From a bacterium (GTDB taxonomy: Bacteria; Verrucomicrobiota; Verrucomicrobiia; Limisphaerales; UBA11358), in contig JAKAFL010000002.1 in NCBI GenBank assembly GCA_021817945.1, forward strand, positions 84,929 to 148,928: a DNA stretch of 64,000 nt, read 5' to 3'. The notes beneath the pieces were generated by a model. It was not told the origin of the DNA. It did no database searches and saw nothing but the letters and a program-made list of their open reading frames with translations. The position numbers and the translations under genes are program-made. This document shows positions 13,214-63,940 of the stretch, in pieces. Position 1 is the first letter of the stretch, and each line of letters begins with the position of its first letter.

Positions 13214-13405
13214 GGAGAGCCTGTCTGGAAATGGCAATGGGTGCTGTTGTCTGTCGAAAACCCTTCGGGCGGCTTGTCTTTTGGCTTCAGCCTTCGTTGC
13301 TCGCTCCTTGCAGACCCATGGCGGGTATGCTCGTCGTTCGCGCCTCGGCTGAAACCAAAATCCATTGCCGCACCACCCACTGTCATTTCCAGAAAGGCTC
13401 TTTCC
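13214..13405 (+). repeat. 192-bp inverted-repeat-bounded element, copy 1 (MITE-like)
   Basis: Ends GGAGAGCCTGTCTGGAAATGG...CATTTCCAGAAAGGCTCTTTCC. Differs from copy 47686-47877 at 3 positions. Confidence 0.9.
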
Positions 13406-13645
13406 CTCTCCCCACACTCCGTTTGCGGGGAGAGGAGACCAAAGGCGTCAGGTTATTTTATGCGCTTGAAAAGGTTGAGCATCTGTGGCGCTTGAAATGT
13501 TTTAAGACCGTCACAAACCCATCGTCTCTTTCTCCCTCTCCGCCAATTTTATTGGGGGAGAGGGGCGGGGAGAGGTGGTGCTGAGATTTCAGAAAGTGAG
13601 ATTGTTCATCTTTCGCACCGACTGTTTGCGATGCCCCCCTCCCTT

Positions 13646-13837
13646 GGAGAGCCTGTCTGGAAATGGCAATGGGTGCTGTTGTCTGTCGAAAACCCTTCGG
13701 GCGGCATGTCCTTTGTCTTCAACCTTTGTTGCTCCCTCCTTACAGACCCATGGCGGGTATGCTCGTCGTTCGCGCCTCGGCTGAAACCAAAATCCATTGC
13801 CGCAGCACCCACCGTCATTTCCAGAAAGGCTCTTTCC
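13646..13837 (+). repeat. 192-bp inverted-repeat-bounded element, copy 2
   Basis: Same end motifs and same length as copy 1. The central block is the B variant (CATGTCCTTTGTCTTCAACC). Confidence 0.9.
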
Positions 13838-14079
13838 CCCTCCCCACACTCCGTTCGTGGGGCGAGGGAATAAGACACTCTTGATTGTTTAACGGTCTTG
13901 AAAGGGTTAAGCGTCATTGGCACTTGTATTAGTTTAAAACCGTCACAAACCCATCCTCTCTTTCTCCCTCTCCGCCAATTTCATTGGGGGAGAGGTGGTG
14001 CTGAGATTTCGGAAAAAGAAGTTGTTCACCTTTCGCACTGACTGTTTGCGACCACCCCCTCTCCCTTGGAGGCGCTGAG

Positions 14080-15291
14080 TCACGCGAGTTCAACCCAGGG
14101 AGGGGGCGGCCCTCCGTGGGTGAGCCAGTCATAGACTCCCTTCATTTTTTCGGCAACTGCCTGCCATGTGTAATCTTTGCGGACCAAATTGCGCCCGGCT
14201 GCACCCATGGCGGCCAGTTCCGCCGGACCCATGGCCAGGAGTTTATCCAGTCCCTGCCCAATGCCATCCACGCCCGCCGACACCTCCACGGCGCCCCCGG
14301 CCCGGGCCAGTTCGCTGAAATGGCATTCCCGGGTGAGAAGCACCGCTAACCCCGAAGCCGCAGCCTCCAGCACGGCCATGCTAAATCCCTCGCTGTGGGA
14401 GGGCAGCACAAAGGCATCCGCCCCGGCCAGCATCGCGCTTTTGCGGTCGCCATAAGCGGGCCCGGCAAAAACCACCTGGTCGGTCAGGCTCAAATCCACA
14501 GCCATCCGCCGCAATTCCGCTTCGTGGCCGCATTCATCCGGTCCCACCACCACCAGCCGCCAATCCCCTGCACGGGGGCCCGCATGCGCCCAGGCACGCA
14601 GCAAGTCCGGCACCCCCTTTTTGGGATGAATCCGGGATAAAAACAGGAGAATTCGCGCGCCAACCAGATGCGGATGCTCATTCCAGACCCGCCGCGCCTC
14701 ATCCCTGACCAGGGAAGAGGGGAGATCAATGCCGTTGGGAATGACGGCAATGGGGGCTTTCAGGCCATACTCACGCAGGCTCAGCTTCTCCGCGTCGCAT
14801 AGCGCATGAAGGCAATCCGCGCTTTGAAGATTTTTGTTCTCGAAAAGCCGGCCCGCCAGCCGTTTTTTAAGGCTCCCCTGGCGCAAGGCCCAGGGTTCCA
14901 GCATGCCGTGCGGCGACACCACGCGCCGACATCCCATCCGCCGCGATAGGGAACGGCCCAAAATGCCGGGATGCATCCACAGACCGTGCACATGCACCAG
15001 ATCGCCCTTGCCCAGTTCCCCCGCCAGACGGCTTGCGAGATCTGGCGACCAGCCAAAGGCAGCCGGACCTTTCACACGGCCAGAGATGATCGTCAGGGAT
15101 TTGCGTGACCCGGAGTGCTGTTTGGAATCCTCCGCAAAAAAAGCGTCCTCTAATCCGCTCACCACGCCGGGAATACCTAAATCATCGAGGCTGCGGGCCA
15201 AGGCCCAAATGACCGGGGGAATGCCCCCGCCACGCCGCGAGAGCCAGGAGGTAAGATGAATGACCCGCCGCGCTGATTGCGGACCGCTCAC
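14080..15291 (-). CDS. GT4 family glycosyltransferase
   Basis: FVLPSHSEGFSMAVLEAAASGLAVLLT (EX7E-type motif). GTG start at 15291. Confidence 0.85.
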   Translation of the reverse strand: MSGPQSARRVIHLTSWLSRRGGGIPPVIWALARSLDDLGIPGVVSGLEDAFFAEDSKQHSGSRKSLTIISGRVKGPAAFGWSPDLASRLAGELGKGDLVHVHGLWMHPGILGRSLSRRMGCRRVVSPHGMLEPWALRQGSLKKRLAGRLFENKNLQSADCLHALCDAEKLSLREYGLKAPIAVIPNGIDLPSSLVRDEARRVWNEHPHLVGARILLFLSRIHPKKGVPDLLRAWAHAGPRAGDWRLVVVGPDECGHEAELRRMAVDLSLTDQVVFAGPAYGDRKSAMLAGADAFVLPSHSEGFSMAVLEAAASGLAVLLTRECHFSELARAGGAVEVSAGVDGIGQGLDKLLAMGPAELAAMGAAGRNLVRKDYTWQAVAEKMKGVYDWLTHGGPPPPWVELA

Positions 15292-15319
15292 GTGCTTGAC
15301 CTGCCTTTATGGGCCGCCA
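15283..15319. repeat. Direct repeat, left copy (26 nt perfect, ~37 nt imperfect) flanking the acyltransferase cassette
   Basis: ACCGCTCACGTGCTTGACCTGCCTTT is identical to 16625-16650. The extension still reads LAAHKGRSST* on the minus strand, against LMAHKGRSST* at the real GT C-terminus. Confidence 0.9.
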
Positions 15320-15386
15320 ACTTTTTCAGCTTCATTTGGTTCATTGGCCAACTCAACGTCGAATTACCATATATCCCACGTTTTGG

Positions 15387-16517
15387 TCAGTTAACGGCAT
15401 GCGACAAAGGGGTGCGTTTAGTTTTTATTCCGCTTGCCGCTTTTCTTATCCATTCCCTGCAAGGGTGCTCAAAATACCTATAGGAAAGCTCTGAAACCAC
15501 CAAGACCAAGCCAACCACAACAGAACAGGATAAAAATTCACCAAGATGATTTTTCATATAGTTGTTATGGAAAATAGTAATGAATGCTGCCTGCCACAGG
15601 TAAATTGAATACGACCTCTCACCCAGCCATTGAAACACCCTGGTCCTTAAAAGGTGAGCACCCATGCCCTTATCAGAGGCCATAAAGATCACTAAAAATG
15701 GAAAAATAAAAAGAACCGAAAAACCCGGTAAACCAAGAAACGCAACCGAAAACAAAATTCCAATGAACGCAAGCGTCGCCAAGTTGATCAGACGCAAATC
15801 CAAAAATAAGCTGATTTTTTCCCGATAAAGCGAACAAAGCAAAAAACCGATGCTAAACCCAATGATTCCGCGAGCTAGGAAGGCTGGCTTCCAATTAAAA
15901 TTAAAAATGGAGACATTCCCCAGTCTGTATGCCCCAACAACGCAAAAAGCCAAGATCAGAATGAGAACGGCTTTCAGAATGGTGCAAAAGGAATTCTTTT
16001 GCACAAGGCTTTGAAATAAAACAAGCATCGGGAAAATCATGATGTAACAAAAGAATTCAACACCTATGGACCATGCCGGACCATTAAAAGTTGGCAAAGA
16101 ACAGACTCCTGACATCAGGGTCAGATTCAATATAATTTCTCGATGTAGGTCAAAATAAGACCCAACAAATTTTAGCCCATATTTTTGTATACTGTGCAAA
16201 ACAATCGGTATTGCAAGAAATGTTGTCAAATAGTATAGCGGGCAAATTCTTGCAACCCTGGCCACAAAGTAGGATTTCCAATCCACAGGCTTATTTTCAG
16301 ATATGTAAGCCCAATGCAAAATAAAGCCGCTTAAAATAAAAAAGAGGTCCACTGAATATTCGCCCCACTGAAACAATTGGCATATTCGATTTGCCCGCAA
16401 GACACCACCACCCGCCCATGTTAGATGGAATAGAAAAACATATAAAGCTGCTATTCCCCGCAAACCAGTATGTGAATAAATTGCTTTTATTGAGGGTTTC
16501 ATCATTTTTAAAAACAC
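15387..16517 (-). CDS. Acyltransferase family 3 membrane protein (probable glycan O-acetyltransferase)
   Basis: LRGIAALYVFLFHL N-terminal motif and about 10 hydrophobic helices. The gene is strongly AT-rich relative to its neighbours. Confidence 0.8.
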   Translation of the reverse strand: MFLKMMKPSIKAIYSHTGLRGIAALYVFLFHLTWAGGGVLRANRICQLFQWGEYSVDLFFILSGFILHWAYISENKPVDWKSYFVARVARICPLYYLTTFLAIPIVLHSIQKYGLKFVGSYFDLHREIILNLTLMSGVCSLPTFNGPAWSIGVEFFCYIMIFPMLVLFQSLVQKNSFCTILKAVLILILAFCVVGAYRLGNVSIFNFNWKPAFLARGIIGFSIGFLLCSLYREKISLFLDLRLINLATLAFIGILFSVAFLGLPGFSVLFIFPFLVIFMASDKGMGAHLLRTRVFQWLGERSYSIYLWQAAFITIFHNNYMKNHLGEFLSCSVVVGLVLVVSELSYRYFEHPCREWIRKAASGIKTKRTPLSHAVN

Positions 16518-16624
16518 CCGATTTAATACCCCTGCTTATTCCCAATTCGAATTATATCGCCTTCCAATATTGGAAATATTTTTAAACCAAGTAAAAAAAA
16601 GGAGCCACCCTTTATTTTGGATAA

Positions 16625-16661
16625 ACCGCTCACGTGCTTGACCTGCCTTTGTGCGCCATCA
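16625..16661. repeat. Direct repeat, right copy, covering the stop codon region of GT 16630-17913
   Basis: Same 26-mer as 15283-15308. Confidence 0.9.
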
Positions 16662-17913
16662 GCAGCCAGAGTTGCAGACGGGCGAGCAGGGAAAACGAAG
16701 CGGGTTGGGCGGATATTGCCGCCAGCGCGGCCTGTTCCAAGCCTTGGGCGAAATGGTCGGTGCCCCATTTGGAAATGGCAAACCGGGATCTCCTGCCCAT
16801 GGCGGCCAGGTCCTGATCGGGCTGTCCGCAGCGCAACATCAACCGGGCCATTTGCACGGTGTCCCCGGGGTCGAAGGTAAAGCCATTCAACCCTTCCTCC
16901 ACCAGGTCGCCCGCGCAACCGCAGCGGCACGACACCAGCACGGGCAATCCGCACGCCATGGCCTCGTTCACCACCAGGCCCCATTGCTCGGTGATGCTGG
17001 GATGAATGAAAGCCGAGGCCAGGGCATAAAAAAGAGGCAGTTCCTGGTACTGCTTGAACCCGCGCAAAAGCACGTTTTCGCTGAGGCCCAGGGCGCGGAT
17101 GCGCTCAACCAAAGACTCGCGCAAGGGTCCATCACCCATGATGACCAAGTCCCATGGCTTGGCGCCATTGGCCCCATCCTGCACCTGCCAAAGCTGCCGG
17201 TACCGGGAATACGCCTCCACCAATCCATCCAGATTCTTCTTGGGCACAAACCGGGCTGATGCCAGGAAAAAGGTTTCCGGCAGGTTATGTTGCCGACGCA
17301 ATTCCCCGGCGTGACTTCTGAACTGACCCGATTGCTCCTGAAAATAGTCGTTGTCCACGGTGTCATAGCCCGTGAAAATGCGGTCAGCCGGGAAGCCCAG
17401 CTTCTTCAGATATTCTGCATGCGCCCTGCCCCCCACCAATGCGGCGCCGAACAGTTTCAGGAGGCGGCCCTTGATGCCTTCCTTGATTTGCTGGCGATTA
17501 AAATCCCAGGCCGTGGATTCGGACATGACCACGGCGGGCACTTTTTGTTTGGCACACCAATCCAGCGCAGCCAGCGCGCAGCGATCCGACCAGCCCGGGA
17601 TGGCCACCGCCTGGGGCTGAATGCGCGACAAGGTTTCATGGATTCGATGGCGAATCCGCCCGGCGGAGAGGTTTTCCACCGCTTCATTGGCGAACAATTT
17701 CACCCGCTCGAAACCGGCGGCTCCATCCATGGGGTCCCAGGCATACATCCGGTCCACGTCGGAGAATTCCACCGCCGTGACCTGCATTCTGCGGGCTGCG
17801 GCCTGGATCCGGGCATGATGATAAGGCCCCAAGCGATGGAACAGCACGGCCACGCGCAATTTTTTTGCCCCAGGCTTTCCCGCCCCGGATACCGCATGTT
17901 CAGAAATCATCAA
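16630..17913 (-). CDS. GT4 family glycosyltransferase
   Basis: FIHPSITEQWGLVVNEAMACGLPVLVS motif; 427 aa. Confidence 0.85.
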   Translation of the reverse strand: MMISEHAVSGAGKPGAKKLRVAVLFHRLGPYHHARIQAAARRMQVTAVEFSDVDRMYAWDPMDGAAGFERVKLFANEAVENLSAGRIRHRIHETLSRIQPQAVAIPGWSDRCALAALDWCAKQKVPAVVMSESTAWDFNRQQIKEGIKGRLLKLFGAALVGGRAHAEYLKKLGFPADRIFTGYDTVDNDYFQEQSGQFRSHAGELRRQHNLPETFFLASARFVPKKNLDGLVEAYSRYRQLWQVQDGANGAKPWDLVIMGDGPLRESLVERIRALGLSENVLLRGFKQYQELPLFYALASAFIHPSITEQWGLVVNEAMACGLPVLVSCRCGCAGDLVEEGLNGFTFDPGDTVQMARLMLRCGQPDQDLAAMGRRSRFAISKWGTDHFAQGLEQAALAAISAQPASFSLLARLQLWLLMAHKGRSST

Positions 17914-17978
17914 AGAGCCTGTCTATAAAGGACCTTGGGCGCTGCGTCAATGGATTTTGGGCCGTCCCACCGCCGTTT

Positions 17979-18036
17979 CTCACCCTCCCCCCGCGCTTCG
18001 CTGGCATGGGGAGGGAATAAAGACACGCTGGATCGT
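17979..18036 (+). repeat. Solo H3-type hairpin module
   Basis: CTCACCCTCCCCCCGCGCTTCGCTGGCATGGGGAGGGAATAAAGACACGCTGG, same family as H3 modules in the arrays. Confidence 0.8.
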
Positions 18037-18049
18037 TGGACGCCATCGT

Positions 18050-19594
18050 TCACCCCTGCCGGATCCCGGTAAACCCCTTGCGCTTGCGCAAACCGTGCCG
18101 GCGAGCTTCACTGAACATAAAGCTCAATCTTGGAGCGGCATGGGTCATGGCCCCCCACGCGGGTTGAGCGGCCGCCGGTTGGCGGGCTGCCTGTTGAGGC
18201 AGCGCGTCCGATCTGTGCGAGCCTACCCCGGCGCGCGCCCGACGCCGTTCGATCCACCAGATCAACCCGGCCCCGAACACAAAAGGATAAAGCGTGATCA
18301 AGGTAATGTCCCGGCCCAGGTTGAAAGTCAGGATCAAGCCCAGCGCGTACATGGGCAATCGGCCGAACTCCTGCACCTGCAAATCATATCTGGCCAGCCA
18401 GACCACCCAGAGACTCATGAGGAGCGCTGCGGCTGCGGGGCCTAAAATGCGGCCAAAATTCACCACCCCCTGCCCGATCATGCCGGTGGAGATGGTGGTG
18501 TCCACCGTGCCGTTTGGACCGGTGATGTGATGGCCCCGGGCAATGGCGTAATCCAGTCCGATCAAGGGCTTGTTATGCCACAACCCACGGGGGATGGGAT
18601 TCACCAACTCCGCAAAATAGCGCTGGCCCCAGTTGACCCGATAACGCCCGTTCTCAATGAAAGTGCTGATCCAGCACAGCTCCTCGTACATGTTGAGTCC
18701 CTCGTTGTGGACTTTCTTTTGGGCGCTCAAATTCAAACCTTGTTCCTGGAATGCCGCCGTGATGGTGGTATGAGACCGATTGGCGATGATGAATTTCATC
18801 CAGACATTAATGGCCAGAAAAAACAGGAGCAAAACGGCGGCTTTTTTCCACATGCCACCCCTTAACTTTAAGAACACCCAGCATAGGATTGCCGGAATCA
18901 CCAGCGCGAGCAACTGGTTGCGTGTGCGGCTGAAAATGAAAAAGGGCCAGGCTGCAATGCACAGGGCCAAGGCCTGGATCCGAACCTTCCGGTCTGCCGC
19001 CAAGGCCAGAACCACACCCAGCATGGTGGCCGAAAGCAATTGGAGATAAACGGCGACAATCGAAAAGCAATCGAAGCCCGCGCCGATCTGGCCGTGTGAC
19101 CACGGATTGGCCTGATAGCCGAGAAACGGAAAGACATAATAAATCACCTGATCTTTCAATACCAGGAAAGCCACGAAGAGAAGAAACAACCACACAGCGG
19201 CGCAGCCCGCAAAAACCCGTTTGATTTGCCTTTGAATCATTGGTTGATCCACACCGTGTTGGAACAACTTCATCACCCCGCTCCCCCGCGATTTCAGGCT
19301 GCCATTGATGCGGTCGTGCAGCATCGGTGCCGAAACTAGGAAAACCACAAGAAACCACGCCACCTGCCACCAGGCGCTGCTTAGCACTTCCGGCGTAAAC
19401 AATTTTACATGGTTGTGGGGGTAATCATTGTAAAAAGCATCACCCACGTACCAAGCAGCCACGGTGCCCAGGACTGCCAGCAGCGGCAGACCCGTGCCAT
19501 CCTTCATGCGATGCCAGCCCATCATGCCGCCCCACGCGAGGAGCAGAATGACCACCCAAAAGCTGACGGGCATTATGGAGAGAGTTTCGATCAC
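18050..19594 (-). CDS. Wzy / O-antigen-ligase-like polytopic membrane protein (putative polymerase)
   Basis: 514 aa with more than 10 hydrophobic helices. It has FIFSRTRNQLLAL and a large late loop with HNEGLNMYEELCWISTFIENG, as in the Wzy_C domain. The C-terminal ~70 aa are low complexity. Confidence 0.6.
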   Translation of the reverse strand: MIETLSIMPVSFWVVILLLAWGGMMGWHRMKDGTGLPLLAVLGTVAAWYVGDAFYNDYPHNHVKLFTPEVLSSAWWQVAWFLVVFLVSAPMLHDRINGSLKSRGSGVMKLFQHGVDQPMIQRQIKRVFAGCAAVWLFLLFVAFLVLKDQVIYYVFPFLGYQANPWSHGQIGAGFDCFSIVAVYLQLLSATMLGVVLALAADRKVRIQALALCIAAWPFFIFSRTRNQLLALVIPAILCWVFLKLRGGMWKKAAVLLLFFLAINVWMKFIIANRSHTTITAAFQEQGLNLSAQKKVHNEGLNMYEELCWISTFIENGRYRVNWGQRYFAELVNPIPRGLWHNKPLIGLDYAIARGHHITGPNGTVDTTISTGMIGQGVVNFGRILGPAAAALLMSLWVVWLARYDLQVQEFGRLPMYALGLILTFNLGRDITLITLYPFVFGAGLIWWIERRRARAGVGSHRSDALPQQAARQPAAAQPAWGAMTHAAPRLSFMFSEARRHGLRKRKGFTGIRQG

Positions 19595-19859
19595 AAATTC
19601 TTTTGCCGGGATTTTAGGGTTATTTAAACTCCCTGGCTACATCTTCAAATTGAAATTATCCGGTATGAAGTCAAATTGAACGCGTCATTTTTTGCTTCCT
19701 CTCCGCCAAGTACCAGAGGGGGCGGGCCAGCAGTACAACCGCGAATGGACGCCAATTCACGCCAATGAAAATTCTTTTGCGGGGCGGGGAGACCGGGGGC
19801 GCTGGGTGGGTGTTTGTTTTAATTGTCTCACTGACAGTTTGCGAGTGCCCCTCTCCCTT

Positions 19860-20051
19860 GGAGAGCCTGTCTTGAAATGGCAATGGGTGCTGTTGTCTGT
19901 CGAAAACCCTTCGGGCGGCATGTCCTTTGTCTTCAACCTTTGTTGCTCCCTCCTTACAGACCCATGGCGGGTATGCTGGTCACTCGCGCCTCGGCTGAAC
20001 CCAACATCCATTGCCGCACCACCCACTGTCATTTCCAGAAAGGCTCTTTCC
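19860..20051 (+). repeat. 192-bp inverted-repeat-bounded element, copy 3
   Basis: Same ends and length as copies 1 and 2. Central B variant, with the 3' end variant of copy 1. Confidence 0.9.
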
Positions 20052-20777
20052 CTCTCCCCACACTCCGTTCGTGGGGCGAGGGAATAAGACACTCTTGATT
20101 GTTTAACGGTCTTGAAAGGGTTTAGCGTCATTGGCACTTGTATTAGTTTAAAGCCATATCAAACCCACCGCGTCTTACCCCCTCTCCGCCAATTTTATTG
20201 GGGGAGAGGGACGGGGAGAGGTGGTGCTGAGATTTCGGAAAAAGAAGTTGTTCACCTTTCGCACTGGCTGATTGCGAGGTCCCCCCTCCCTGGCCCTCCC
20301 CCCGCGCTTCGCTGGCAGGGAGAGGGAATAAGAGGCGCTGGGTTGCTTATGCGTTTGAAAGGATTGAGCGTCATTGGCGCTTGAAATGTTTTGAGACCGT
20401 CACAAATCCACCGCTTTTTCTCCCTCTCCGCCAATTTCATTGGGGGAGAGGGACGGGGAGAGGTGGTGCTGAAATTTCAGAAAGTGAGATTGTTCATCTT
20501 TCGCACTGACTATTTGCGATCTCCCCCCTCCCTGGCCCTCCCCCCGCGCTTCGCTGGCAGGGAGAGGGAATAAAAGGCGCTGGATTTTTTAAGGATATTG
20601 AAAGGGTTTAGCGTCATTGGCACTTGTATTAGTTTAAAGCCATATCAAACCCACCGCGTCTTACCCCCTCTTCGCCAATTTCATTGGGGGAGAGGGACGG
20701 GGAGAGGTGGTGCTGAAATTTCAGAAAGTGAGATTGTTCATCTTTCGCACCGACTGTTTGCGATGCCCCCCTCCCTT

Positions 20778-20868
20778 GGAGAGCCTGTCTTGAAATGGCA
20801 ATGGGTGCTGTTGTTTGTCGAAAACCCTTCGGGCGGCTTGTCTTTTGGCTCAAGCCTGCGTTGTTCAT
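20778..20868 (+). repeat. 192-bp element, truncated 5' half (copy 4)
   Basis: GGAGAGCCTGTCTTGAAATGGCAATGGGTGCTGTTGTTTGTCGAAAACCCTTCGGGCGGCTTGTCTTTTGGCT..., then homology is lost into an H2 module. Confidence 0.8.
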
Positions 20869-21265
20869 TTCTCCCCTCTCCTTAATCCTCTCCCCACACT
20901 CCGTTCGCGGGGCGAGGAGACCGGAGGCGCTGAGCTTTCAAAAAGTGAGATTATTTATTTGTCGCACTGAATGTTTGCGAGTGCCCCCCTCCCTGGCCCT
21001 CCCCCCGCGCTTCGCTGGCAGGGAGAGGGAATAAGAGGCACTGGGTTATTTAGCGGTTTTGAAAGGGTGGAGCGTCTTTGGCCATCGAAACGTTCAGAGA
21101 CATTATTAGATCCAACGTCTTTTGATCCCTCTTCGCCAATTTTATTGGGGGAGAGGTGGTGTTGAAAGAACGCCGGGTGAGGGCACCCGGCCTACAAGGC
21201 GGCAGGTTTCGGTTTCTGTCGGCGCTCCGAGTTTGTGCCTGCGATGCGTTTGATAACAGACTTGG

Positions 21266-37057: not shown

Positions 37058-37505
37058 AACCGCGAATGGACGCCAATTCACGAGGATGATACTTTATTTT
37101 TGGAGAGAGGGAATAAGACACGCTTGGTTTTTTAGCGGTCTTGAAAGGGTGGAGCGTCATTGACACTTGGAATGTTTTAAAGCCATATCAAACCCATCGC
37201 TTTTTTCTCCCTCTCCGCCAATTTTATTGGGGGAGAGGGACGGGGAGAGGTGGTGCTGAACGAACGCCGGGTGAGGGCACCCGGCCTACAAGGCGGCAGG
37301 TTTCCGCTCTGACTGTTTGCGAGCGCCCCTCTCCCTGGCCCTCTCCCCGCGCTTCGCTGGCAGGGAGAGGGAATAAGAGGCTATGGGTTTGCCATGGCAT
37401 CTACAAATATTCCGCTCCTACGGAGCTCCCAATTGGAGTGACGAGGAGACCAGAGGCGCTGGGTTGTTTAAGGCGTTTGAAAGGGTTGAGGGTTATGGGC
37501 GTGCC
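37058..37505 (+). repeat. Mosaic hairpin-repeat array 3
   Basis: Edge motif AACCGCGAATGGACGCC (37058-37074), H1 at 37211, P hairpin at 37267-37284, H3 and T modules. Confidence 0.9.
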
Positions 37506-37516
37506 CGCGCATTGGG

Positions 37517-38572
37517 TCAGGATTTGGCGCCGGATTTTTGGGCCTGATAAATTTCTGAGAACACGTCGTCAATGGACTTGGTGATGTCCCAGCCGGGGTA
37601 GTGCTGCTTCATCTTGGTCAGGTCGCTGATGTAGCAGATGTGGTCGCCGGCGCGGTTTTGGTCCACGTATTCGTACTGCATCTTTTTCCCGCTCAGGGCG
37701 GCAATGCGGTCGAAGGCTTCCAGGATGGAGACGCTGTTGGCGCGTCCGCCGCCGATGTTGTACACCTCCCCGCAGCGGGGATTTTCTGAAAAGGCGTGGA
37801 TGAACCGGGCGACGTCCAGGGAGTGGATGTTGTCGCGGACTTGCTTGCCTTTGTAGCCAAAGATTTTGTAGAGGCGGCCTTCCACATTGCATTTGACGAG
37901 GTAGCTGAGGAAGCCGTGAAGTTCCACGCCGCTGTGGTTGGGGCCGGTCAGGCAACCGCCGCGCAGGCAGCAGGTGTGCATGCCAAAGTAGCGGCCGTAT
38001 TCCTGGACGAGGATGTCGCCGGCGACCTTGGACGCGCCAAAGAGGCTGTGCTTGCTCTGGTCTATGGAGAAATCCTCGGCAATGCCGCCGGCATAGGCGG
38101 GATCGTCATAATCCCAGCGGGTGGGCAGTTCCTTGAGGCGGATGCCATTGGGCCGGTCGCCATAGACCTTGTTGGTGCTCATGTGGGCGAACACGACCTT
38201 GGGGACGTGCAGGCGCGAGGCTTCGAGAAGGTTCAGGGTGCCGACGGCGTTGACATCGAAATCGTCGAAGGGCCGTGAGGCGGCGAGGTCGTGGCTGGGT
38301 TGGGCGGCGGTGTGGACGAGGAGGTCGGGTTTGAGCTGGCCCAGCAATGCGGCCACGCCGGCGCGGTCGCGGATGTCCAGTTCATGGTGCTGGAATGTGG
38401 CGTGCATGGAGGCAAGCCGGCGCTGGTTCCAGCGGGTATCGCCGCCGGGGCCGAAGAAATCGGCCCGCATGTTGTTGTCCACGCCGTGGACTTTCCAGCC
38501 GAGGCGGCAGAAATAATCCACCACTTCGGATCCAATCAATCCTGACGAGCCGGTTACCAGCAGTTTTTTCAT
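37517..38572 (-). CDS. Extended SDR NAD-dependent epimerase/dehydratase (CDP-paratose 2-epimerase-like)
   Basis: [10 protein letters not shown] Rossmann motif, [17 protein letters not shown] (YxxxK region), GKQVRDNIH and [14 protein letters not shown]. Confidence 0.8.
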
Positions 38573-38654
38573 AAGATTTTATTTTTTAGAGACTGATTTA
38601 AAATTCGGAGTAGCGCCCCTCCCAATTTTAAAACAGTCTCTTAGACGGGTAGTT

Positions 38655-39191
38655 CAACCGCGAATGGAGCCTCGTTTACGGGGCGGGGAGACCGGAGGCG
38701 CCGGGCAATTTTGTTTGTTCAATTATCGCACTGACTGTTTGCGAGCGCCCCTCTCCCTGGCCCTCTCCCCACACTCCGTTCGTGGGGCGAGGGAATAAGA
38801 GGCTCTGGGTTGTTTTATGCGCTTGAAAGGGTGGAATGTCTGTGGCGCATGTAGTAGTTAAAGGCCAAATTGAACCTACCGCTTTTTTCTCCCTCTCCGC
38901 CAATTTTATTGGGGGAGAGGGCCGGGGAGAGGTGGTGCTGAGCTTTCAGAAAGTGAGATTGTTTATTTTTCGCATTGACTGTTTGCGATCTCCCCTCTCC
39001 TTAATCCTCTCCCCACACTTCGTTTGCGGGGAGAGGGAATAAGAGGCGCTGGGTTGTTTTATGCGCTTGAAAAGGTTGAGCATCATTGGCGCTTGAAATG
39101 TTTTAAAACCGTCACAAACCCATCGTCTCTTTCTCCCTCTCCGCCAATTTCATTGGAGGAGAGGGACGGGGAGAGGTGGTGCTGAGCTTTC
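38655..39191 (+). repeat. Mosaic hairpin-repeat array 4
   Basis: Edge motif CAACCGCGAATGGAGCC (38655-38672). H1 copies at 38893 and 39136 (period 243). It stops at ...GGTGGTGCTGAGCTTTC, directly before the DUF559 stop codon. Confidence 0.9.
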
Positions 39192-39199
39192 TCCATTTT

Positions 39200-39631
39200 T
39201 TAAGCCGTTTTCGTTCGGATGAGTTTCTCAGGATCTGGAGGCAAAAAGCGGTGATTCTGAGTTTTTCGCACCACTTTTACATATCCCGTTCGCTCATTCA
39301 ACTGACCCCAAATTTCCAACAAAACCCCCTCGCGCTGGCTTCGCCATTGCCGATTCCAAAAACGCATCACAACAATTCCATGATCGGCCAAATTTTTGTC
39401 TCGTTCCGTGTCGTGCTCCAACTGCATTGGCAATCCATGTTGAAAGCCATCAAGCTCCACTGCCAACCGGGCCAGGGGACAATAAAAATCGAGAACATAA
39501 TTCCCACATGAATATTGTCGCCGAAATTTGAACCCAGCAAAGCGCCCCGCACGCAAGACTCGCCACAATGATTTCTCATCATCCGTCATCGAGCGGCGAA
39601 GACGTCTGGCATTCCCTTTGACCAGCGTCAT
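39200..39631 (-). CDS. DUF559 (Vsr/restriction-endonuclease-like) domain protein
   Basis: LWRVLRAGRFAGFKFRRQYSCGNYVLDFYCPLARLAVELDGFQH...DTERDKNLADHGIVVMRFWN, the canonical DUF559 pattern. Confidence 0.85.
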   Translation of the reverse strand: MTLVKGNARRLRRSMTDDEKSLWRVLRAGRFAGFKFRRQYSCGNYVLDFYCPLARLAVELDGFQHGLPMQLEHDTERDKNLADHGIVVMRFWNRQWRSQREGVLLEIWGQLNERTGYVKVVRKTQNHRFLPPDPEKLIRTKTA

Positions 39632-39676
39632 AAATCCGTGAGTACAACACCTTGATATTGCATAAAGGCTGGATTA

Positions 39677-40097
39677 TCTCCCCTCTCCTTAATCCTCTCC
39701 CCACACTCCGTTCGTGGGGCGAGGAGACCGGGGCGCTAAGGTTTCGAAAAGTGAGATTGTTTATTTGTCGCACTGACTGTTTGCGAGCGCCCCTCTCCCT
39801 GGCCCTCTCCCCGCGCTTCGCTGGCAGGGAGAGGGAATAAGAGGCGCTGGGTTTTTTAAGGCTCTTGAATGGGTCGAGCGTCATTGACGTGCCAAAATAG
39901 ATTAAAACCGTCTCCAACCCACCGTCTCTTTCTCCCTCTCCGCCAATTTCATTGGGGGAGAGGGACGGGGAGAGGTGGTGCTGAACGAGCGCCGGGTGAG
40001 GGCACCCGGCCTACAAGGCGACAGGTTTCCGCTCTGACTGTTTGCGAGTGCCCCTCTCCCTTGGAGAGCCGCTGGGTGGGTTTATGCGTCATTGGTG
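39677..40097 (+). repeat. Mosaic hairpin-repeat array 5
   Basis: Starts with the H2 module TCTCCCCTCTCCTTAATCCTCTCCCC. H1 at 39936 and P hairpin at 39992-40009. It ends 3 nt before the DUF218 gene stop. Confidence 0.9.
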
Positions 40098-43214: not shown

Positions 43215-43224
43215 ATCTTATTTA

Positions 43225-45418: not shown

Positions 45419-45468
45419 TCGCAGGCAGGACCGGATTGGAGTGCGCGATTTATAACGGCCTTAACGCG

Positions 45469-45481
45469 GACATGCCGCAGG
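45469..45481 (-). promoter_or_regulatory. Shared 11-mer CCTGCGGCATG, site 2, ~50 nt upstream of NusG-paralog ORF start
   Basis: GACATGCCGCAGG is identical over 13 nt to site 1. Confidence 0.4.
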
Positions 45482-45508
45482 ATGCCTGTCCCAACCCCGC
45501 CTGAATGG

Positions 45509-46180
45509 CTATTTGACGCTATCCTCCACCCAACAAACGGCATAACGGATAAGGGAATTGAGATTTTTGAGCTTGAGCTTGCGCCGAATGCTGCCCACCA
45601 AACCGTCCACCTCTTTCACGGTCATCTCCACCTGGTCGGCGATTTCATTGGAACTGCGTCCCTGACCAAGGCCCTCCAGGACTTCCAATTCCACATCGGT
45701 GAGGGTGTCAATCAGGGAGGCGTCATCGGGGACAGGATTGCGCATGGCATCGTTGGCAAAAACATTTTCGCTAACGTAAATGCGTCCGGCCAAAACATCG
45801 CGGATAGCCAGAACAATCACCTCTGGGTCCTCCTGTTTCATGACGTAACCATCCCCGCCGGCCCTTAAAACCCGTTGTGCGTAAATGGCCTCATCGAACA
45901 TGGAAACAGCCAGCAACTTTACCGGGATGGCTTCATCGCGGATTTCCTTGATCAATTCCAGGCCGCTTTTGCCGGGCAAGCCGATATCCACCACCACCAG
46001 GTCCGGCTTGGCTTTGCGGATCATTTTGATGGCCTGGCACGGATCCCCAGTGCCGCCGCAAACCTTTAAATCAGGCTCTGCATTGAGCAATTTGCCCAAG
46101 CCCTCGCGAAAAACCGGATGGTCCTCCACCAAAAAGACCAGGCTTTTTTTGGTGCCAGCCTTTTTCCCTAGCTTGATCAT
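45509..46180 (-). CDS. NarL/LuxR-family response regulator
   Basis: REC domain (LVFLVEDHP...DLVVVDIGLPGKSG) plus LuxR HTH (LTDVELEVLEGLGQGRSSNEIA). Confidence 0.9.
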   Translation of the reverse strand: MIKLGKKAGTKKSLVFLVEDHPVFREGLGKLLNAEPDLKVCGGTGDPCQAIKMIRKAKPDLVVVDIGLPGKSGLELIKEIRDEAIPVKLLAVSMFDEAIYAQRVLRAGGDGYVMKQEDPEVIVLAIRDVLAGRIYVSENVFANDAMRNPVPDDASLIDTLTDVELEVLEGLGQGRSSNEIADQVEMTVKEVDGLVGSIRRKLKLKNLNSLIRYAVCWVEDSVK

Positions 46181-46270
46181 GCCAAAATCCTACACGGCAA
46201 GTCTGCATCCGCACAAGGGAATTGAGAGTGAAATTCCCCCTGCCCGCCCGCCGGAGCCGGGGCGGCAGGT

Positions 46271-46450
46271 CAACCGCGAATGGACGCCTCGTTTGCGGGG
46301 TGAGGGAACCGGGGGCGCTGGGTTGATTTATACGCTTGAAAATGGGGTTCACATTCAACGCTCGAAATGGTTTTAGGCCAAGGCAAGCCTTCCGCGTCTT
46401 TCTCCCTCCCCATCAATCCCGGTTGATGGGGAGGGCCGGGGATGGGTGGC
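46271..46450 (+). repeat. Mosaic hairpin-repeat array 6 (short)
   Basis: Edge motif CAACCGCGAATGGACGCC (46271-46288), H2 3' half, T-like tail and the ATCAAT-variant hairpin 46402-46435. Confidence 0.8.
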
Positions 46451-47093: not shown

Positions 47094-47164
47094 CCGGGCT
47101 GGCTTGGAAGAGTTTCCCCTCCAGCATCTTGACCCTTTCCATTTAGCATTTCGGGTTCAATTGT

Positions 47165-47964
47165 CGCACTGACTGTTTGCGAGCGCCCCTCTCCCTAACC
47201 CTCTCCCCACACTTCGTTCGTGGGGCGAGGGAATAAGAGGCGCTGGGTTTATTTATACGCTTGAAAATGGGGTTCCCTTTCAACGCTCGAAATGCAATAA
47301 AGACCACCTTAAATCCATCGTCTCTTTCTCCCTCTCCGCCAATTTCATTGGGGGAGAGGGACGGGGAGAGGTGGCGCTGAGTTTTCTGAAAGTGAGATTG
47401 TCCATCTTTCGCTCTGACTATTTGCAAGCGCCCCTCTCCCTAATCCTCTCCCCACACTCCGTTCGTGGGGCGAGGGAATAAAAGGCGCTGGGTTGTTTAA
47501 TACGCTTGAAAAGGTTGATCGTCGTTGGTGCTTGAAATGTTTTGAGACCGTCACAAACCCATCGTCTCTTTCTCCCTCTCCGCCAATTTCATTGGGGGAG
47601 AGGGACGGGGAGAGGTGGTGCTGAGCTTTCAGAAAGTGAGATTGCTTTTTTCGCACTGACTGTTTGCGATTTCCCCCCCTCCCTTGGAGAGCCTGTCTGG
47701 AAATGGCAATAGGTGCTGTTGTCTGTCGAAAACCCTTCGGGCGGCTTGTCTTTTGGCTTCAGCCTTCGTTGCTCGCTCCTTGCAGACCCATGGCGGGTAT
47801 GCTCGTCGTTCGCGCCTCGGCTGAAACCAAAATCCATTGCCGCAGCACCCACCGTCATTTCCAGAAAGGCTCTTTCCCTCCCCCCCGCACTTCGCTGGCA
47901 GGGAGGGGGAATAAGACACCCTGGATAGTTTTATGCGTTTGAAAGGGTGATGCCTCCTTGGCGG
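47165..47964 (+). repeat. Mosaic hairpin-repeat array 7 (H1 at 47332, 47576)
   Basis: Period of 244 bp. It contains 192-bp element copy 5 and lies in the convergent gap between the CheY-like gene and the kinase gene. Confidence 0.9.
47686..47877 (+). repeat. 192-bp inverted-repeat-bounded element, copy 5
   Basis: Three differences from copy 1. Here it is nested in an H3-type hairpin rather than an H2-type hairpin. Confidence 0.9.
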
Positions 47965-48004
47965 ACGAACCACTCCCATTCCGGAACGAGCGCCTGGCCA
48001 ATTC

Positions 48005-50323
48005 TTAACGTTTGCCTTTTTTTGAACTGGCTGCCGCGCGGGCCTGCTTTTTTCTGGAGACCGGGGGGCTCTTTGCTTTTTGCAAAAACGTTCCATCCAC
48101 GGATTCATCGCTTTTGTCCACTTCTTCATCGTGCAAGGGAACGCGAACGAAGATGGAAGTGCCTTTTTGGGGTTCGGCCTTGATTTCGCACTCGCCATGC
48201 ATGGCCAGGGCGCGTTCGCGCATATTGGTCAGTCCCAGGCCGTGACGGGTTTTGCGGCCCGCCTCAACCACTGCGGGGTCGAAGCCCTGTCCATCATCCT
48301 GAATCCTGAGGAGGACGAGGTTATTGCGGACCTGCAAGGAAAGTTTGACATTTTTGGCCCTGGCATGCTTGGAGATGTTATTGATGGCTTCCTGGATGAT
48401 ACGGAAGAGGTGCAATTCCTTGGCTGGCGGCATGCGCTGCTTGGAGGCTGCCACGCGGCAATCAATGCGCAAGCTGGTGCGCGCCTGGACATCGTTGCAG
48501 AAGCTGGTGCAAGCGGCAGCCAGGCCCAGGTTATCCAATTCCGCCGGGCGAAGGTTATGGGCGATGCGCCGGTTTTCCTCAAGCACCCGCACCAACACCT
48601 GGTCGCAGCGCCGCAGGATTTCCCGTGCCGCAGGCTTCAGGTCCGGCAGTCCGGTCTCCACTTTTCTGAGCCTCATCTTGACCGATGCGATCAACTGATT
48701 GATGCCATCATGCAATTCCTGCGCGATCCGGGAACGCTCCGCTTCCTGCGCCTTCAGGATGCGTTGCGGGAGGGAGCGCAGCTCCGCCTCGGCCTTTTTA
48801 CGCTGGGTGATGTCCCGGATATACATGGTGAACATCACATGATCCGCCAGATTGATGGGGGTGATGGTGAATTCCGCTGAAAAACGGCTTCCATCCGCCC
48901 TCAAGGCGGGGATTTCGATGCGGCTGCCCAGCGCCGGGCCCTTGACTCCCAAAAAGCCCGAGGCCAGGCCGTTTAAAAACCATGGCTTGAAGGGAGGCGG
49001 AATGATGGCTACCACGTTTTGCCCCACGCATCTGGACTGGCTTAATGCAAAAATCTTCTCGGCCGCCGTGTTGAGTTCAATGATGTTTCCCTGCTGGTCA
49101 ATGGTGATGATGCAGTCCAAGGCGGCCTGCATGATGGCTCTCTTGCGGGCTTCGCTTTCCGCAAGGGAATCCAAGGCAGCCTTGCGGTGGGTGATGTCAT
49201 CAGCGATTCCCACCACCCGGTAAATCCGGCCTGATTCATCCTTGATGGGGAAACTGCGGTCCTGAATCCAACGAATGGAATTGTCGGGCCGGACGATGCG
49301 GTAAATTTCGTCGTACTCGCTTTCCTGGCCCCTCGAGAAGAGGCCAGCCAAAACCCTGCTGCGGTCCTCCGGGTGCAGTGAATCCACCCAGTACTGGGAT
49401 GATTCGCAAAGCCCGGTGCAGGGTTGTCCCCAGATATGCTCAAAGGCTGGACTGACGTAAATGAACCTGCTTTTGTCGGCATTGCTTATCCAAAAGACCT
49501 CGCGGATATTATCAGCCAATTGCCGGAATTTCTGCTCGCTTTCCCGGAGGGCATCCTGGGCGCGCGTCCTTTCATCCACATCGCGGACCATGCTGAGCAA
49601 TCCGGCAGGTTGTTCAGTGAGACCCAGGGAAACGGTTGCGCTCAATTCCACCCTCACGCGGGTGTGATCCCTGCGAATGAGCGTATATTGGGCATCCCGC
49701 AGCACCCCCACCTTCAGGGCGTGGGTTATATCCTGCTTGATCCGGTCATGGTCCTGTTCGGGTGTGAGATCAAAAATGGTTTTTTCGAGCAGATGTGCTG
49801 AATCTGTGTAGCCGAGCATTGAAACCGCCTGGCTGTTGGCGGTAAGCAGGCGTCCACGCGGATGGATCAGGAACACGGCGTCTGGAAGGATGTCTATCAA
49901 CCGCCGGTGGTAGGCTTCGCTTTCCCTGAGGGCGACGGTGGTGCTGTGCAACCTGACGAGGGTTTGGACCCGGGCCAGCAATTCGCGCAGGCTCATGGGC
50001 TTGACCAGGTATTCATCCGCCCCCAGGGCCAACCCGCTCACCTTATGGTCATCGCTCACCGCCTCGCCGGAACACAGAGCCACGAAAACATCCTGCAACC
50101 GGGGGTTTGTTTTGATGCGGCGACACACCTCATCCCCGCTGATATCGGGAAGCCTCACATCCAACAGGACAAGATCGGGAACACGGTGCTGGGCCATGTG
50201 AAGGGCTTGCTGGCCCGTATTGGCCTCAAGCACCTGGTAACCCGCATCCCTCAGCACGCTGCCAAAAAGCTGGCGAATCTCGTCGTTGTCATCCACCACC
50301 AATATGGTAACAGCCTTTTTCAT
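48005..50323 (-). CDS. Hybrid sensor kinase: N-terminal receiver, three PAS-like segments, HisKA_3 + HATPase_c
   Basis: ILVVDDNDE...LVLLDVRLPDISG, H-box RIAQELHDGINQ, and EAINNISKHA, DDGQGFD and GLGLTNMRERA boxes. Basic C-terminal tail. Confidence 0.85.
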   Translation of the reverse strand: MKKAVTILVVDDNDEIRQLFGSVLRDAGYQVLEANTGQQALHMAQHRVPDLVLLDVRLPDISGDEVCRRIKTNPRLQDVFVALCSGEAVSDDHKVSGLALGADEYLVKPMSLRELLARVQTLVRLHSTTVALRESEAYHRRLIDILPDAVFLIHPRGRLLTANSQAVSMLGYTDSAHLLEKTIFDLTPEQDHDRIKQDITHALKVGVLRDAQYTLIRRDHTRVRVELSATVSLGLTEQPAGLLSMVRDVDERTRAQDALRESEQKFRQLADNIREVFWISNADKSRFIYVSPAFEHIWGQPCTGLCESSQYWVDSLHPEDRSRVLAGLFSRGQESEYDEIYRIVRPDNSIRWIQDRSFPIKDESGRIYRVVGIADDITHRKAALDSLAESEARKRAIMQAALDCIITIDQQGNIIELNTAAEKIFALSQSRCVGQNVVAIIPPPFKPWFLNGLASGFLGVKGPALGSRIEIPALRADGSRFSAEFTITPINLADHVMFTMYIRDITQRKKAEAELRSLPQRILKAQEAERSRIAQELHDGINQLIASVKMRLRKVETGLPDLKPAAREILRRCDQVLVRVLEENRRIAHNLRPAELDNLGLAAACTSFCNDVQARTSLRIDCRVAASKQRMPPAKELHLFRIIQEAINNISKHARAKNVKLSLQVRNNLVLLRIQDDGQGFDPAVVEAGRKTRHGLGLTNMRERALAMHGECEIKAEPQKGTSIFVRVPLHDEEVDKSDESVDGTFLQKAKSPPVSRKKQARAAASSKKGKR

Positions 50324-52866: not shown

Positions 52867-52898
52867 CCCAAACCCGCCCCGATGCCGTCTGGGTCAGG

Positions 52899-61535: not shown

Positions 61536-61770
61536 GCAGTATCATAGGGCTGTCCACGGGAAGTTCCAATGAAGTTTGAGTTCTTTCTTGCTGGAATCCC
61601 ATTTTCAACCGGAACCATGGAATCTGCGTGAAGCCTCAATCCTGAAACTTGTCCGGAGATGAAAAGGAGCGATCTTTGCAAACCACCTCAACTTCACCAT
61701 CCGGGCCCGCAGTCATTTTAGGGCTGAACCCCGACCGTGGATTTCCCTCATGTCGCTTGATGACCGGTTT

Positions 61771-62835
61771 TCAATTCCGCAGATAATGACAGGTATATCC
61801 ACCGGGATTTTTTTGCAGGTAATCCTGGTGATATTCCTCCGCAGGATAAAATATCGTGGCAGGAATGATTTCCGTGACCACTGGATTCTTCCATTTTCCG
61901 GATTTGTCCACCTGCATTTTGACGCGTTCAGCAACCTCCCTTTGAGCCTGGCTGGTGTAAAAAATCGCTGACCGATATTGGGATCCGACGTCGTGCTGCT
62001 GGCGGTCACGCGTGGTGGGATCGTGCATGCGGAAGAAATAGCCAAGCAATTGCTCATAGCTCAACTTGGCGGGATTAAAAACCACCTTCACCGCCTCAGC
62101 GTGCCCGGTGGTGCGCGAACAGACCGTTTCATAGGTGGGATCGGGCGTGTGGCCGCCGGTGTACCCAACGGTGGTTTGAATGACGCCCGGAATGGAACGC
62201 AAAATTTCCTGCATCCCCCAGAAGCAGCCACCCGCCAGGATTGCGGTTTCGGTTTTGGGTTGAGGTTGGATCAAGCCAGCCTGAACGAATGGGGCAAGCT
62301 GATCGCCATAGCCAGCGGCGGCCATTTGGGCCAGGGGAATAAATTTAAGCGAAGCGGAATTGATGCAAAAACGCTGATGGGTTGGCCCCGGTCCGTCTTC
62401 AAAAACGTGCCCCAGGTGGGAATCCGCGCCAACCGAACGCACTTCAGTCCGCTCCATGCCAAAAGAGTCATCCGCTTTCTCAATGATGGCGTTCTGATCC
62501 ACAGGCCGGGTAAAACTGGGCCAACCGCAACCGGAATCAAACTTGTCCAGCGAGCTGAATAGAGGCTTTCCTGAGACGATATCCACATAAATACCCGGCG
62601 CATGATTGTCCCAGTATTCATTTTCAAACGGCGGCTCGGTGGCGGCCTCTTGGGTGACCCGGTACTGCATGGGAGTGAGTTTTTGCTTTCGTTCAGCCGG
62701 TGGAATGGGAGTGAAATGATTCATGGTGAAATTGTTTGATGCCAGCCCCGAACCAGCGCTTTCACTGGGTCGGCACCCAGCCAAAGCCATGGCAAGAAAG
62801 ACCAACCCGCACGCACGATTAAGAAACTGCCTCAT
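61771..62835 (-). CDS. msrBA: Exported (lipoprotein) bifunctional methionine sulfoxide reductase, MsrB domain followed by MsrA domain
   Basis: GCGWPSF and RFCINS (MsrB), then GCFWG (MsrA). Lipobox LAGC follows the Met at 62835. The ORF is open upstream to 63165, but that extension looks non-coding. Confidence 0.85.
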
Positions 62836-63289
62836 GCAGGTCAGACGCGCAACTGGCGATTTCCTTACATTCCTCTTTTCATGCAAGGATTGCCTTCTTT
62901 GATCAACCGACTCGAACAGCTCCTTCCGGGTTGCCACGCCCGCTCCCCTTTGGATAGCCGGGTCTTTTAAATGAATCCGCGTTGACCGTTGAGACTCATG
63001 GGGGTGGAAATTGCAAATACTCGGATTGAAAAATGCAACATAAGCCCCTCCCGAAAGCTCAGCTCGGGCGCATATCGGTTTTAGGCTGGTGAAATTTGGG
63101 TGGAAGGAGAGTGAAAGGGCGGTTTTGGGTTTGTTTTTGACCATGTGGAGCATAGGCATGCCCAACGGGGGGCGGATATTCCCCGCAATCTTGGTTAGAT
63201 TGGATGCTTTTTATGTGCCGCCCCTATGAGGCTCGGAATGATTTTTGGAGGTTGAATTTCTACGAATAGGTCGCCCCTCTGGGACTTGG

Positions 63290-63940
63290 CGGAACACCCC
63301 CATTCCGAAAACTCAGCACCACCTCTCCCCGTCCCTCTCCCCCAATGAAATTGGCGGAGAGGGGGTAAGACGCGACGGATTCAAGGTGGCCCTTATTCCA
63401 TTTCGAGCGCCCCAAACGCTCCACCCCTTCAAAGGCATAAAACAACCCAGCGCCTCTTATTCCCTCTCCCCGCGAACGGAGTGTGGGGGAGAGGGAAAGA
63501 GCCTTTCTGGAAATGACGATGGGAGCTGCGGCGATGGATTTTGGGTTCAGCCGAGCCGTGAGCGACGAGCATACCCCACGTGGGTCTGTAAGGAGTGAAC
63601 AACAAAGGCTGAAGACAAAAGACACGCCGCCCGATGGGTTTTCGACAGACAACAGCACCCTTTGCCATTTCCAGACAGGCTCTCCAAGGGAGAGGGGCAC
63701 TCGCAAACAGCCAGCGCGATAAATGAGCAATCTCATTTTCCGAAAGATCAGCGCCACCCCTCCCCGGCCCTCCCCATCAATGGGAATTGATGGAGAGGAA
63801 GAAAGCGGCGATGGATTCAATAGGGTTTTAACCATTTCGAGCGTCGAGGATGACCGGTATTTTAAAGCGCATTCAATAACCCTGCGCCTCTGGTTTCCTT
63901 GCCCCGCCAGCGGAGGGCTGGAAGAGGATCAAAGAGGGGA
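63290..63940 (-). repeat. Mosaic hairpin-repeat array 8 (inverted orientation; may continue to window end)
   Basis: Reverse-complement H1 at 63335-63361, 192-bp element copy 6, ATCAAT-variant hairpin at 63768-63797 and reverse H2 near 63880-63940. Confidence 0.85.
63494..63685 (-). repeat. 192-bp inverted-repeat-bounded element, copy 6 (most diverged)
   Basis: The reverse complement aligns end to end with copies 1-5 without indels. Confidence 0.85.

Follow-up and report, generated by a model that had tools for sequence, protein, structure and literature searches.

A 192-bp foldback unit in a Limisphaerales genome, apparently a member of a miniature transposable element family, occurs as a module of a mosaic intergenic repeat

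A 192-bp unit bounded by terminal inverted repeats (TIRs) recurs in a 64-kb stretch of DNA from a bacterium of the Limisphaerales (Verrucomicrobiota), namely positions 84,929 to 148,928 of contig JAKAFL010000002.1 (assembly GCA_021817945.1), which is referred to here as the window. To judge from its sequence, the unit is an internally deleted member, with a 184-bp core, of a family of miniature transposable elements with inverted repeats (MITEs) of about 273–282 bp. Its copies in the window behave as a captured module of an intergenic repeat that resembles the bacterial interspersed mosaic elements (BIMEs). The history that seems most reasonable, with a probability of roughly 55%, is one old insertion followed by spread of the element through recombination among repeat units.

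The window has a G+C content of 52.5%, its long open reading frames (ORFs) lie nearly all on the minus strand, and every copy of the element is intergenic. BLAST and MAFFT analyses of the window gave five full copies of 192 bp each, free of gaps: c1 (13214..13405), c2 (13646..13837), c3 (19860..20051) and c4 (47686..47877) on the plus strand, and c5 (63494..63685) on the minus strand. There was also a 5′ half copy on the plus strand (20778..20868, the BLAST match spanning 20778-20866). These are the same copies, equally without indels, that had been listed in an earlier reading made from the letters alone (the sequence-only reading). The identities of the other four full copies to c1 were 98.4, 95.3, 93.2 and 89.6%, the last value corresponding to c5, the most diverged; their E-values against the window ran from 1e-94 to 1e-71 (for the full copies as a whole, 1e-71 to 1e-98 against c1), so low that the similarity is not due to chance. 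Copies c1 and c4, 98.4% identical, differ at 3 positions and are separated by 34.5 kb; they are the pair that the sequence-only reading had called copies 1 and 5 and placed 34 kb apart. The TIR has 30 nt, 26 of which match in c1, and the GAGCC...GGCTC core (13217-13400 in c1) measures 184 bp, both figures agreeing with those given previously. The TIR is kept in all the window copies and in the four full relatives described below. The tetraloop-type hairpin claimed for the interior was present as CCCTTCGGG in four of the full copies, and c5, on the minus strand, differed from them in having CCCATCGGG.

The copies of the element sit in arrays of a mosaic intergenic unit of about 244 bp, and all the full copies are at one and the same junction of this host unit. 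The order of its parts is an H1 hairpin (CCCTCTCC-GCCAATTTTATTGG-GGGAGAGGG), a spacer, the left half-site of H2 (CCCCTCTCC), a loop of 6 nt, the H3 hairpin (CTCTCCCC...GGGGAGAG) and a tail. It contains three CTCTCC/GGAGAG hairpins with variable loops, H3 occurs as two subtypes, and some units are devoid of H1. In the empty units (n about 12) the 6-nt loop is TTAATC, CTGGCC, CTAATC or CTAACC. The statement that the element stands in place of this loop, between two CTCTCC half-sites, was found correct for the full copies, CTAACC being an addition to the loops known before. Concerning the junctions of the full copies, the left one reads ...C(T/C)CTCC-CTT followed by GGAGAGCC, and the right one reads GGCTCTTTCC followed by C(T/C)C(T/C)CCCC, with CTC at this point in four copies and CCC in c2. 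On the left, CCCTT followed by GGAGAGCC was present in 6/6 cases (the five full copies and the half copy), and on the right, GGCTCTTTCC followed by C(T/C)C was present in 5/5. No target duplication was observed at the window copies, either at the family termini, which are flanked by GGA and TTT, or at the 192-bp ends, flanked by CTT and CTC. The extra junction bases CTT-GGA and TTT-CC, which lie outside the family termini, are identical in all the copies and match none of the empty loops. They are constant although the adjoining H3 subtypes differ, and the empty units of those same subtypes carry different loops. All the window copies, full and half, have one common orientation relative to the host unit. 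Of the loci fetched in this work (see below), L001 and L120 were the only ones with the host repeat; this repeat gave no Rfam match, and it may be a system of the repetitive extragenic palindromic (REP)/BIME-like kind in its own right.

Relatives in other genomes were sought with a degenerate 19-mer of the TIR against metagenome and GTDB collections. The scan yielded 77 loci from metagenomes and 51 from genomes, almost every one a single chance match (about 35 chance matches were estimated for the genome set). Seven were real: L088, L129, L089, L119, L101, L120 and L001. Extended similarity or paired TIRs singled out four of them as full relatives, 273–282 bp long, with the same TIR as the window element, and L129 as a truncated copy. 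L088, from a Verrucomicrobiota metagenome-assembled genome (MAG), has 273 bp and is flanked by TTA on both sides. L089 (273 bp) and L119 (282 bp), from MAGs labelled Bifidobacterium and Bifidobacteriaceae, respectively, both possibly mis-binned, are each flanked by TCA on both sides. L101 (277 bp, at 6957-7239 of the locus, in a 2.5-Mb contig), from a MAG labelled Alphaproteobacteria, has TAG on one side and CTA on the other. L129, from the same MAG as L088, is truncated, with a single terminus at the edge of the locus and TCA as its only flank, on the left. A 3-bp T-N-A duplication is present at three of the four full relatives, and the host repeat is absent from all the fetched loci that carry a full or truncated relative (L088, L129, L089, L119 and L101). 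When the L088 element is removed together with one TTA, the restored ORF matches HicA_toxin over its full length (Pfam E=2.7e-18, positions 1-58 of the 58 in the profile), direct evidence that transposition took place and duplicated 3 bp. In the locus as it stands (L088, 2219-2780), the long-form element splits the hicA-type toxin gene between REIL and KQLGISENEF, and the toxin of this MAG is presumably inactivated.

Alignment of the window form to the long form showed that the former equals the latter minus alignment columns 36-125, i.e., a segment of about 90 nt placed just inside the 5′ TIR which corresponds to the first long hairpin of the long form. The family has TIRs, is short and multi-copy (five full copies in 64 kb) and offers a restorable empty site in L088; flanking duplications are seen in L088, L089 and L119 and are lacking at the window copies, for none of which was a clean occupied/empty pair found. 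As judged by these features, it is a genuine, non-autonomous MITE family, and the MITE interpretation already advanced in the sequence-only reading gains from the relatives with the same TIR, their 3-bp duplications and the one gene-disrupting insertion. The strict target preference for the host repeat that had been attached to that interpretation was not sustained as a trait of its transposition: the relatives occur in unrelated, non-repeat contexts, the window copies have constant junctions with no duplications, and the one orthologous difference seen, in L120, is an indel at the level of repeat modules. The same reading had named two kinds of observation as contrary to its proposals, variable lengths and insertion contexts among the copies, and graded intermediates of the repeat unit. 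Variable lengths and contexts were indeed seen in the relatives and truncated intermediates in this lineage, so that, overall, those contrary observations were made in part.

The longer autonomous element with the same termini that had been anticipated did not appear in the window or in the 135 fetched loci, where the longer forms found were the 273–282-bp relatives. A full-length insertion sequence (IS) with these termini that codes for a transposase was likewise not found in the window, in those loci or, by plasmid BLAST, in plasmids. Neither a transposase gene nor a second TIR pair was found in the window, and there is no transposase gene within the element, whose window form (184–192 bp) is crossed only by mechanical ORFs. 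An interior 24-mer had no match in GTDB genomes, a 22-mer had none in viral contigs, plasmid BLAST with the window element gave nothing, and a literature search with the TIR sequence returned only unrelated primer sequences. The best plasmid BLAST match, that of L088 to a Persicobacter plasmid, was discarded as a chance match, as it lies within a long reading frame, probably coding in view of its similarity to toxin-complex proteins, and has no GAGCC terminus.

Concerning the class of transposon, the family termini read GAGCCTGTCTGGAAATG.... The IS1031 group of the IS5 family prefers 5′-TNA-3′ targets and produces exclusively a 3-bp direct repeat (PMC12016507; also PMC1676026), and the inverted repeat of ISLrh is GAACCTGTCTAGTATCT (PMC12016507). 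With ISLrh as the single comparator, 10 of the first 12 positions agree (GAACCTGTCTAG in ISLrh, GAGCCTGTCTGG in the element). The TNA duplications of 3 bp, together with this likeness of the termini, lead to the provisional assignment of the family as one moved by an IS1031-type transposase. Compared to MITEs of the IS1031 group, the element is similar in the beginning of its termini (GAGCCTGTCT.G versus GAACCTGTCTAG of ISLrh), in the exclusive T-N-A duplication of the relatives, and in being small, multi-copy and devoid of transposase. It differs in the absence of duplication and the constant extra bases of the window copies, in that no cognate IS was found, and in an interior formed by a conserved two-hairpin architecture and not by residual IS ends. 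Origins of the IS200/IS605, IS110 or IS630 types were set aside, as the relatives have true TIRs and copy-specific 3-bp duplications other than TA.

It seems reasonable to propose the following history. In the genomes of the relatives, the family moves by transposition with duplication of a 3-bp T-N-A target, presumably of the cut-and-paste type and catalyzed by an enzyme of the DDE class, the likely driver being a transposase of the IS1031 group (IS5 family) supplied in trans. In a Limisphaerales-like genome, one copy may have been inserted in the loop between two CTCTCC half-sites of the BIME-like mosaic repeat, and mutation of the junctions would afterwards have left no target duplication. 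All the present window copies would be descendants of that single composite of element and repeat. They would have spread as a passenger or module among repeat units, and not by repeated site-specific transposition, through recombination or gene conversion between units, duplication or deletion of modules at the CTCTCC/GGGGAGAG arms, and segmental duplication.

Several observations are in agreement with this proposal. A common origin of the window copies is suggested by their uniform junctions, by the lack of a direct repeat at the family termini and by their single orientation relative to the host unit. The five copies have recombined with each other, as nine informative sites gave 18 four-gamete violations. 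Their flanks are mosaic: c2, located in the repeat unit next to that of c1, has a left flank 97.5% identical with that of c1, while its right flank is 94.5% identical with that of c3, the left flank of which is a non-standard array edge. The orthologous locus in L120, a 94%-identical relative labelled Limisphaerales bacterium (Verrucomicrobiota), has about 181 bp which the window does not have, with the right arm of H3 directly repeated at the two ends. This extra block consists of a host module plus a half element, so it represents a module-level indel and not a MITE insertion. The half variant is without one TIR; even so, L120 has it at a second locus, interrupted internally at the identical point.

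Other observations weigh against a single insertion followed by recombination. The copies of the element (89–98% identical) are more alike than their flanks (64–97% on the left, 66–94% on the right), and identity drops abruptly at the element ends, as in the comparison of c1 with c4, with 98.4% inside versus 66% on the right, where c4 adjoins the other H3 subtype. A homogeneous element within diverged flanks is what is expected from independent, recent, site-specific insertions, whereas passive carriage would need gene conversion or crossovers ending at half-sites of 9–10 nt, or concerted evolution of the element. In addition, some REP-targeting IS elements are known to insert in one orientation at one exact point (PMC1525189). 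The comparison draws on 64 kb of the genome and on a few kb from one relative, the order of the arrays near 13–21 kb is without independent confirmation, L101 shows no clean 3-bp duplication, and the basis of the IS1031 assignment is a single published inverted repeat plus the type of duplication, the cognate transposase not having been found. Simple co-amplification of the element with its flanks was rejected in view of the much greater divergence of the latter.

These data raise the alternative of an active, site-specific MITE, mobilized by a transposase that acts in trans and recognizes H2/H3, with each copy being an independent insertion whose orientation and point of entry in the loop do not vary. 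The greater homogeneity of the element relative to its flanks, the occurrence of near-identical copies beside different half-sites and H3 subtypes, and the six left junctions alike would be explained. There is also precedent, since IS elements of five families, including IS5, enter one exact position of REP sequences; for some of them the orientation is constant, and some (ISPa11) leave no direct repeats (PMC1525189). Nevertheless, this alternative looks unlikely when it is considered that the window copies have no target duplication versus the 3-bp ones of the relatives, and that the constant CTT-GGA and TTT-CC are not derivable by insertion alone from TTAATC, CTGGCC, CTAACC or CTAATC. Moreover, the relatives show no preference for such targets, the sole orthologous comparison of occupied versus empty sites, that with L120, is a module-level indel, and a half variant lacking one TIR is present at two loci. 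A different possibility, that the unit arose inside the host repeat as an optional internal segment with no transposon involved, would account for its constant place and orientation, the occurrence of truncated forms and stubs, and the spread at the level of repeat modules. It is contradicted by the homologues with the same termini found in other phylum-level lineages, which have no host repeat, show target duplications and in one case lie inside hicA, and it has very little chance of being correct.

It is also to be considered whether the element has been co-opted as a structured nucleic acid with a function, its sequence being held by selection and not by recent copying, something compatible with a MITE origin. 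The window element folds as a rod on either strand (−87.5 kcal/mol with z = −7.3 for one, −95.6 kcal/mol with z = −9.7 for the other). The long forms fold as a closing TIR stem plus two hairpins of about 100 nt, with a CCCUCCGGG mini-hairpin between them, the consensus of which is CCCU(U/C)CGGG, with a loop always of the UNCG type (UUCG or UCCG). L101 keeps the closing stem, the two hairpins and the CCCUCCGGG centre with hairpin sequences unrelated to those of the Verrucomicrobial members. The architecture common to Verrucomicrobiota and the Alphaproteobacteria-labelled MAG is a closing stem, two replaceable hairpins and an invariant AACCCU(U/C)CGGG mini-hairpin. In an alignment of eight sequences of the family, 93.6% of the cells were paired; 11 of 53 pairs were changed on both sides, as compared to a shuffle mean of 6.2, with 11 being reached in 3 of 500 shuffles. 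The covariation score was 0.162 versus no more than 0.066 for slid controls, with only about four independent lineages contributing. Such covariation is suggestive of a conserved fold and does not separate RNA from DNA structure; since the fold, in the form of a rod or a Y, is preserved by compensatory changes, the element may have a structural role. The element could thus be an RNA domain of intergenic transcripts (a stabilizer, a processing site or a small RNA), a DNA cruciform or a protein-binding site.

The strong fold on both strands, the paired changes and covariation above controls, the plan kept by L101, the constant UNCG loop type, and a conservation exceeding that of the surrounding repeat are all favorable to such a functional role. 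On the other hand, Rfam gave no gathering-threshold hit in the whole window, and scans of the element and its relatives at E ≤ 10 gave only microRNA and small nucleolar RNA matches at chance level, in line with the remark of the sequence-only reading that no known RNA family was recognizable. Neither transfer RNA nor transfer-messenger RNA was found, and simple scans gave no promoter or terminator signal above shuffles. The orientation to the neighbouring genes varies: four copies are antisense to genes of the minus strand, and one of the arrays is inverted. The disruption of a gene by one relative is selfish behavior, the few independent lineages make the covariation statistics weak, and foldback structure is common in MITEs without known host function. 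Taken together, a functional role of this kind is improbable. It is a long shot, too, that the exchange of modules exactly at the CTCTCC half-sites reflects an unrecognized hairpin-directed recombination system (RAYT-like, HUH-like or operating by template switching), or that the conserved fold is that of a functional structured RNA or single-stranded DNA.

The reliability of the arrays was considered using independent assemblies. Proteins identical to those of the window are encoded by ENA contig k141_1633830 (ERZ27237538), by the NCBI MAG contig DAIEDI010000005.1 and by Logan contigs of SRR13299515. Over window positions 38005-60323 the ENA contig shows 99.99% identity, and it independently confirms c4 and its array; the Logan contigs are 100% identical with the window and stop at the repeats. 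The arrays near 13–21 kb collapse in short-read assemblies, and the order of units there is known from the window alone. In that region, the ENA main contig joins the second unit of the first array directly to the half copy. Another contig from that sample, circular in appearance, carries the four genes skipped by the main one, which indicates that the apparent deletion is an assembly shortcut through the repeats; a real deletion of the stretch from 13.3 to 20.4 kb in the ENA strain was rejected on the same grounds. In the window, these genes (14080-15291, 15387-16517, 16630-17910 and 18050-19594, within 14011-19866) lie between two arrays in which c2 and c3 have the element and the right flank in common, and they code for GT4 glycosyltransferases, an acyltransferase and a Wzy-like polymerase. 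Skipping of the block may be due to faulty assembly or to a true indel between strains that the repeats have mediated. Another observation of this kind concerns L120, where positions 1-3349, compared with window positions 40805-42432 and 45214-46322, link the 40.8-kb and 46.3-kb sides via a repeat array; this linkage is ambiguous between a rearrangement, a tandem duplication and a mis-join at repeats.

Concerning the arrays themselves, that of 12837..14071, on the plus strand, holds one empty site (TTAATC loop, 12966-12971), c1 and c2. The array of 19690..21160, on the same strand, holds c3, three empty CTGGCC sites, the half copy and one empty TTAATC site. In the half copy, the right end, ...GTTGTTCAT, is joined to a complete, empty CTCC-TTAATC-CTCTCC H2/H3 site. 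The plus-strand arrays of 37105..40070 contain only empty sites (CTGGCC, TTAATC) plus a stub, a mosaic-repeat stretch occupies 46285-46450, and in the plus-strand array of 47155..47963 empty CTAACC and CTAATC sites are followed by c4. The minus-strand array of 63303..63939, in reverse orientation, holds c5. Two stubs on the plus strand, TTGGAG at 14066..14071, after an H2 left half-site, and GGAGAGCC at 40063..40070, after CCCTCTCCCTT and followed by host post-H3 sequence, mark array ends. Both conform to CCCTT-GGAG(AGCC), and they are ambiguous between remnants of the deletion of filled units and hairpin variants.

A degenerate 3′-end fragment, new in this analysis, was found at 17912..17960 on the minus strand, as a 49-nt match of 82% identity. 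Relative to the adjoining H3 hairpin the fragment is inverted, an arrangement different from that of the full copies, and it touches the ATG of the glycosyltransferase gene 16630-17910. In the stretch 17905-17930, the degenerate terminus ...GACAGGCTC-TTT-G leads directly into this ATG, so element and repeat sequences make up the 5′ region of the gene. The arrays are crossed by long mechanical ORFs at 13024-13386, 13141-13584, 19692-20137, 47629-48198 and 63245-63835, and in locus L136 (5662-6354) a public gene caller reported a 231-aa gene across a repeat array. All these array-spanning ORFs are probably spurious annotations due to the repeats.

As to the significance of these results, they add a MITE family from uncultured Verrucomicrobiota, probably dependent on an IS1031-type transposase, which had not surfaced in limited searches (Rfam, plasmid BLAST, and PMC and bioRxiv full text). 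They would also illustrate clearly the uptake of a transposon relic, as a module, into a BIME-like mosaic repeat. In practical terms, short-read assemblies of this lineage fragment or take shortcuts at the arrays, with four exopolysaccharide genes skipped in one of them, and recognizing the repeats aids the curation of MAGs. If the fold were functional, the family would be a candidate for a new class of structured RNA.

Mosaic or nested small repeats are represented by the enterobacterial BIMEs, the pneumococcal BOX, RUP and SPRITE sequences, and the neisserial Correia elements. The arrays described here resemble them in being intergenic combinations of hairpin modules in variable arrangement, with nested foldbacks, and in acting as hot spots of assembly breaks or rearrangements. 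There is no sequence relationship, and the host unit of about 244 bp was seen only in this lineage. Another related case is that of the IS elements that target REP or BIME sequences, such as IS1397, ISKpn1, ISPsy8, ISPa11, ISPpu9/10 and ISRm22 (Tobes & Pareja 2006, PMC1525189). In both situations a mobile element occupies exactly the same position of an extragenic palindromic unit, often in fixed orientation, and here one point of the unit is occupied by the five full copies and, at the left junction, by the half copy. However, those IS elements are autonomous, the target is picked by their transposase and a target-derived duplication is mostly present. The element of the window is non-autonomous and has no duplication, its relatives are not repeat-targeting, and its junction bases travel with it. 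The choice of target by the element or its transposase is not apparent here, given the constant junctions unlike any target, the unrelated contexts of the relatives and the module-level indel. That autonomous IS elements nest at a single point within extragenic palindromic repeats is already well known; what appears less usual in the present case is that a decayed MITE, in a fixed place, would have been spread by recombination of its host repeat.

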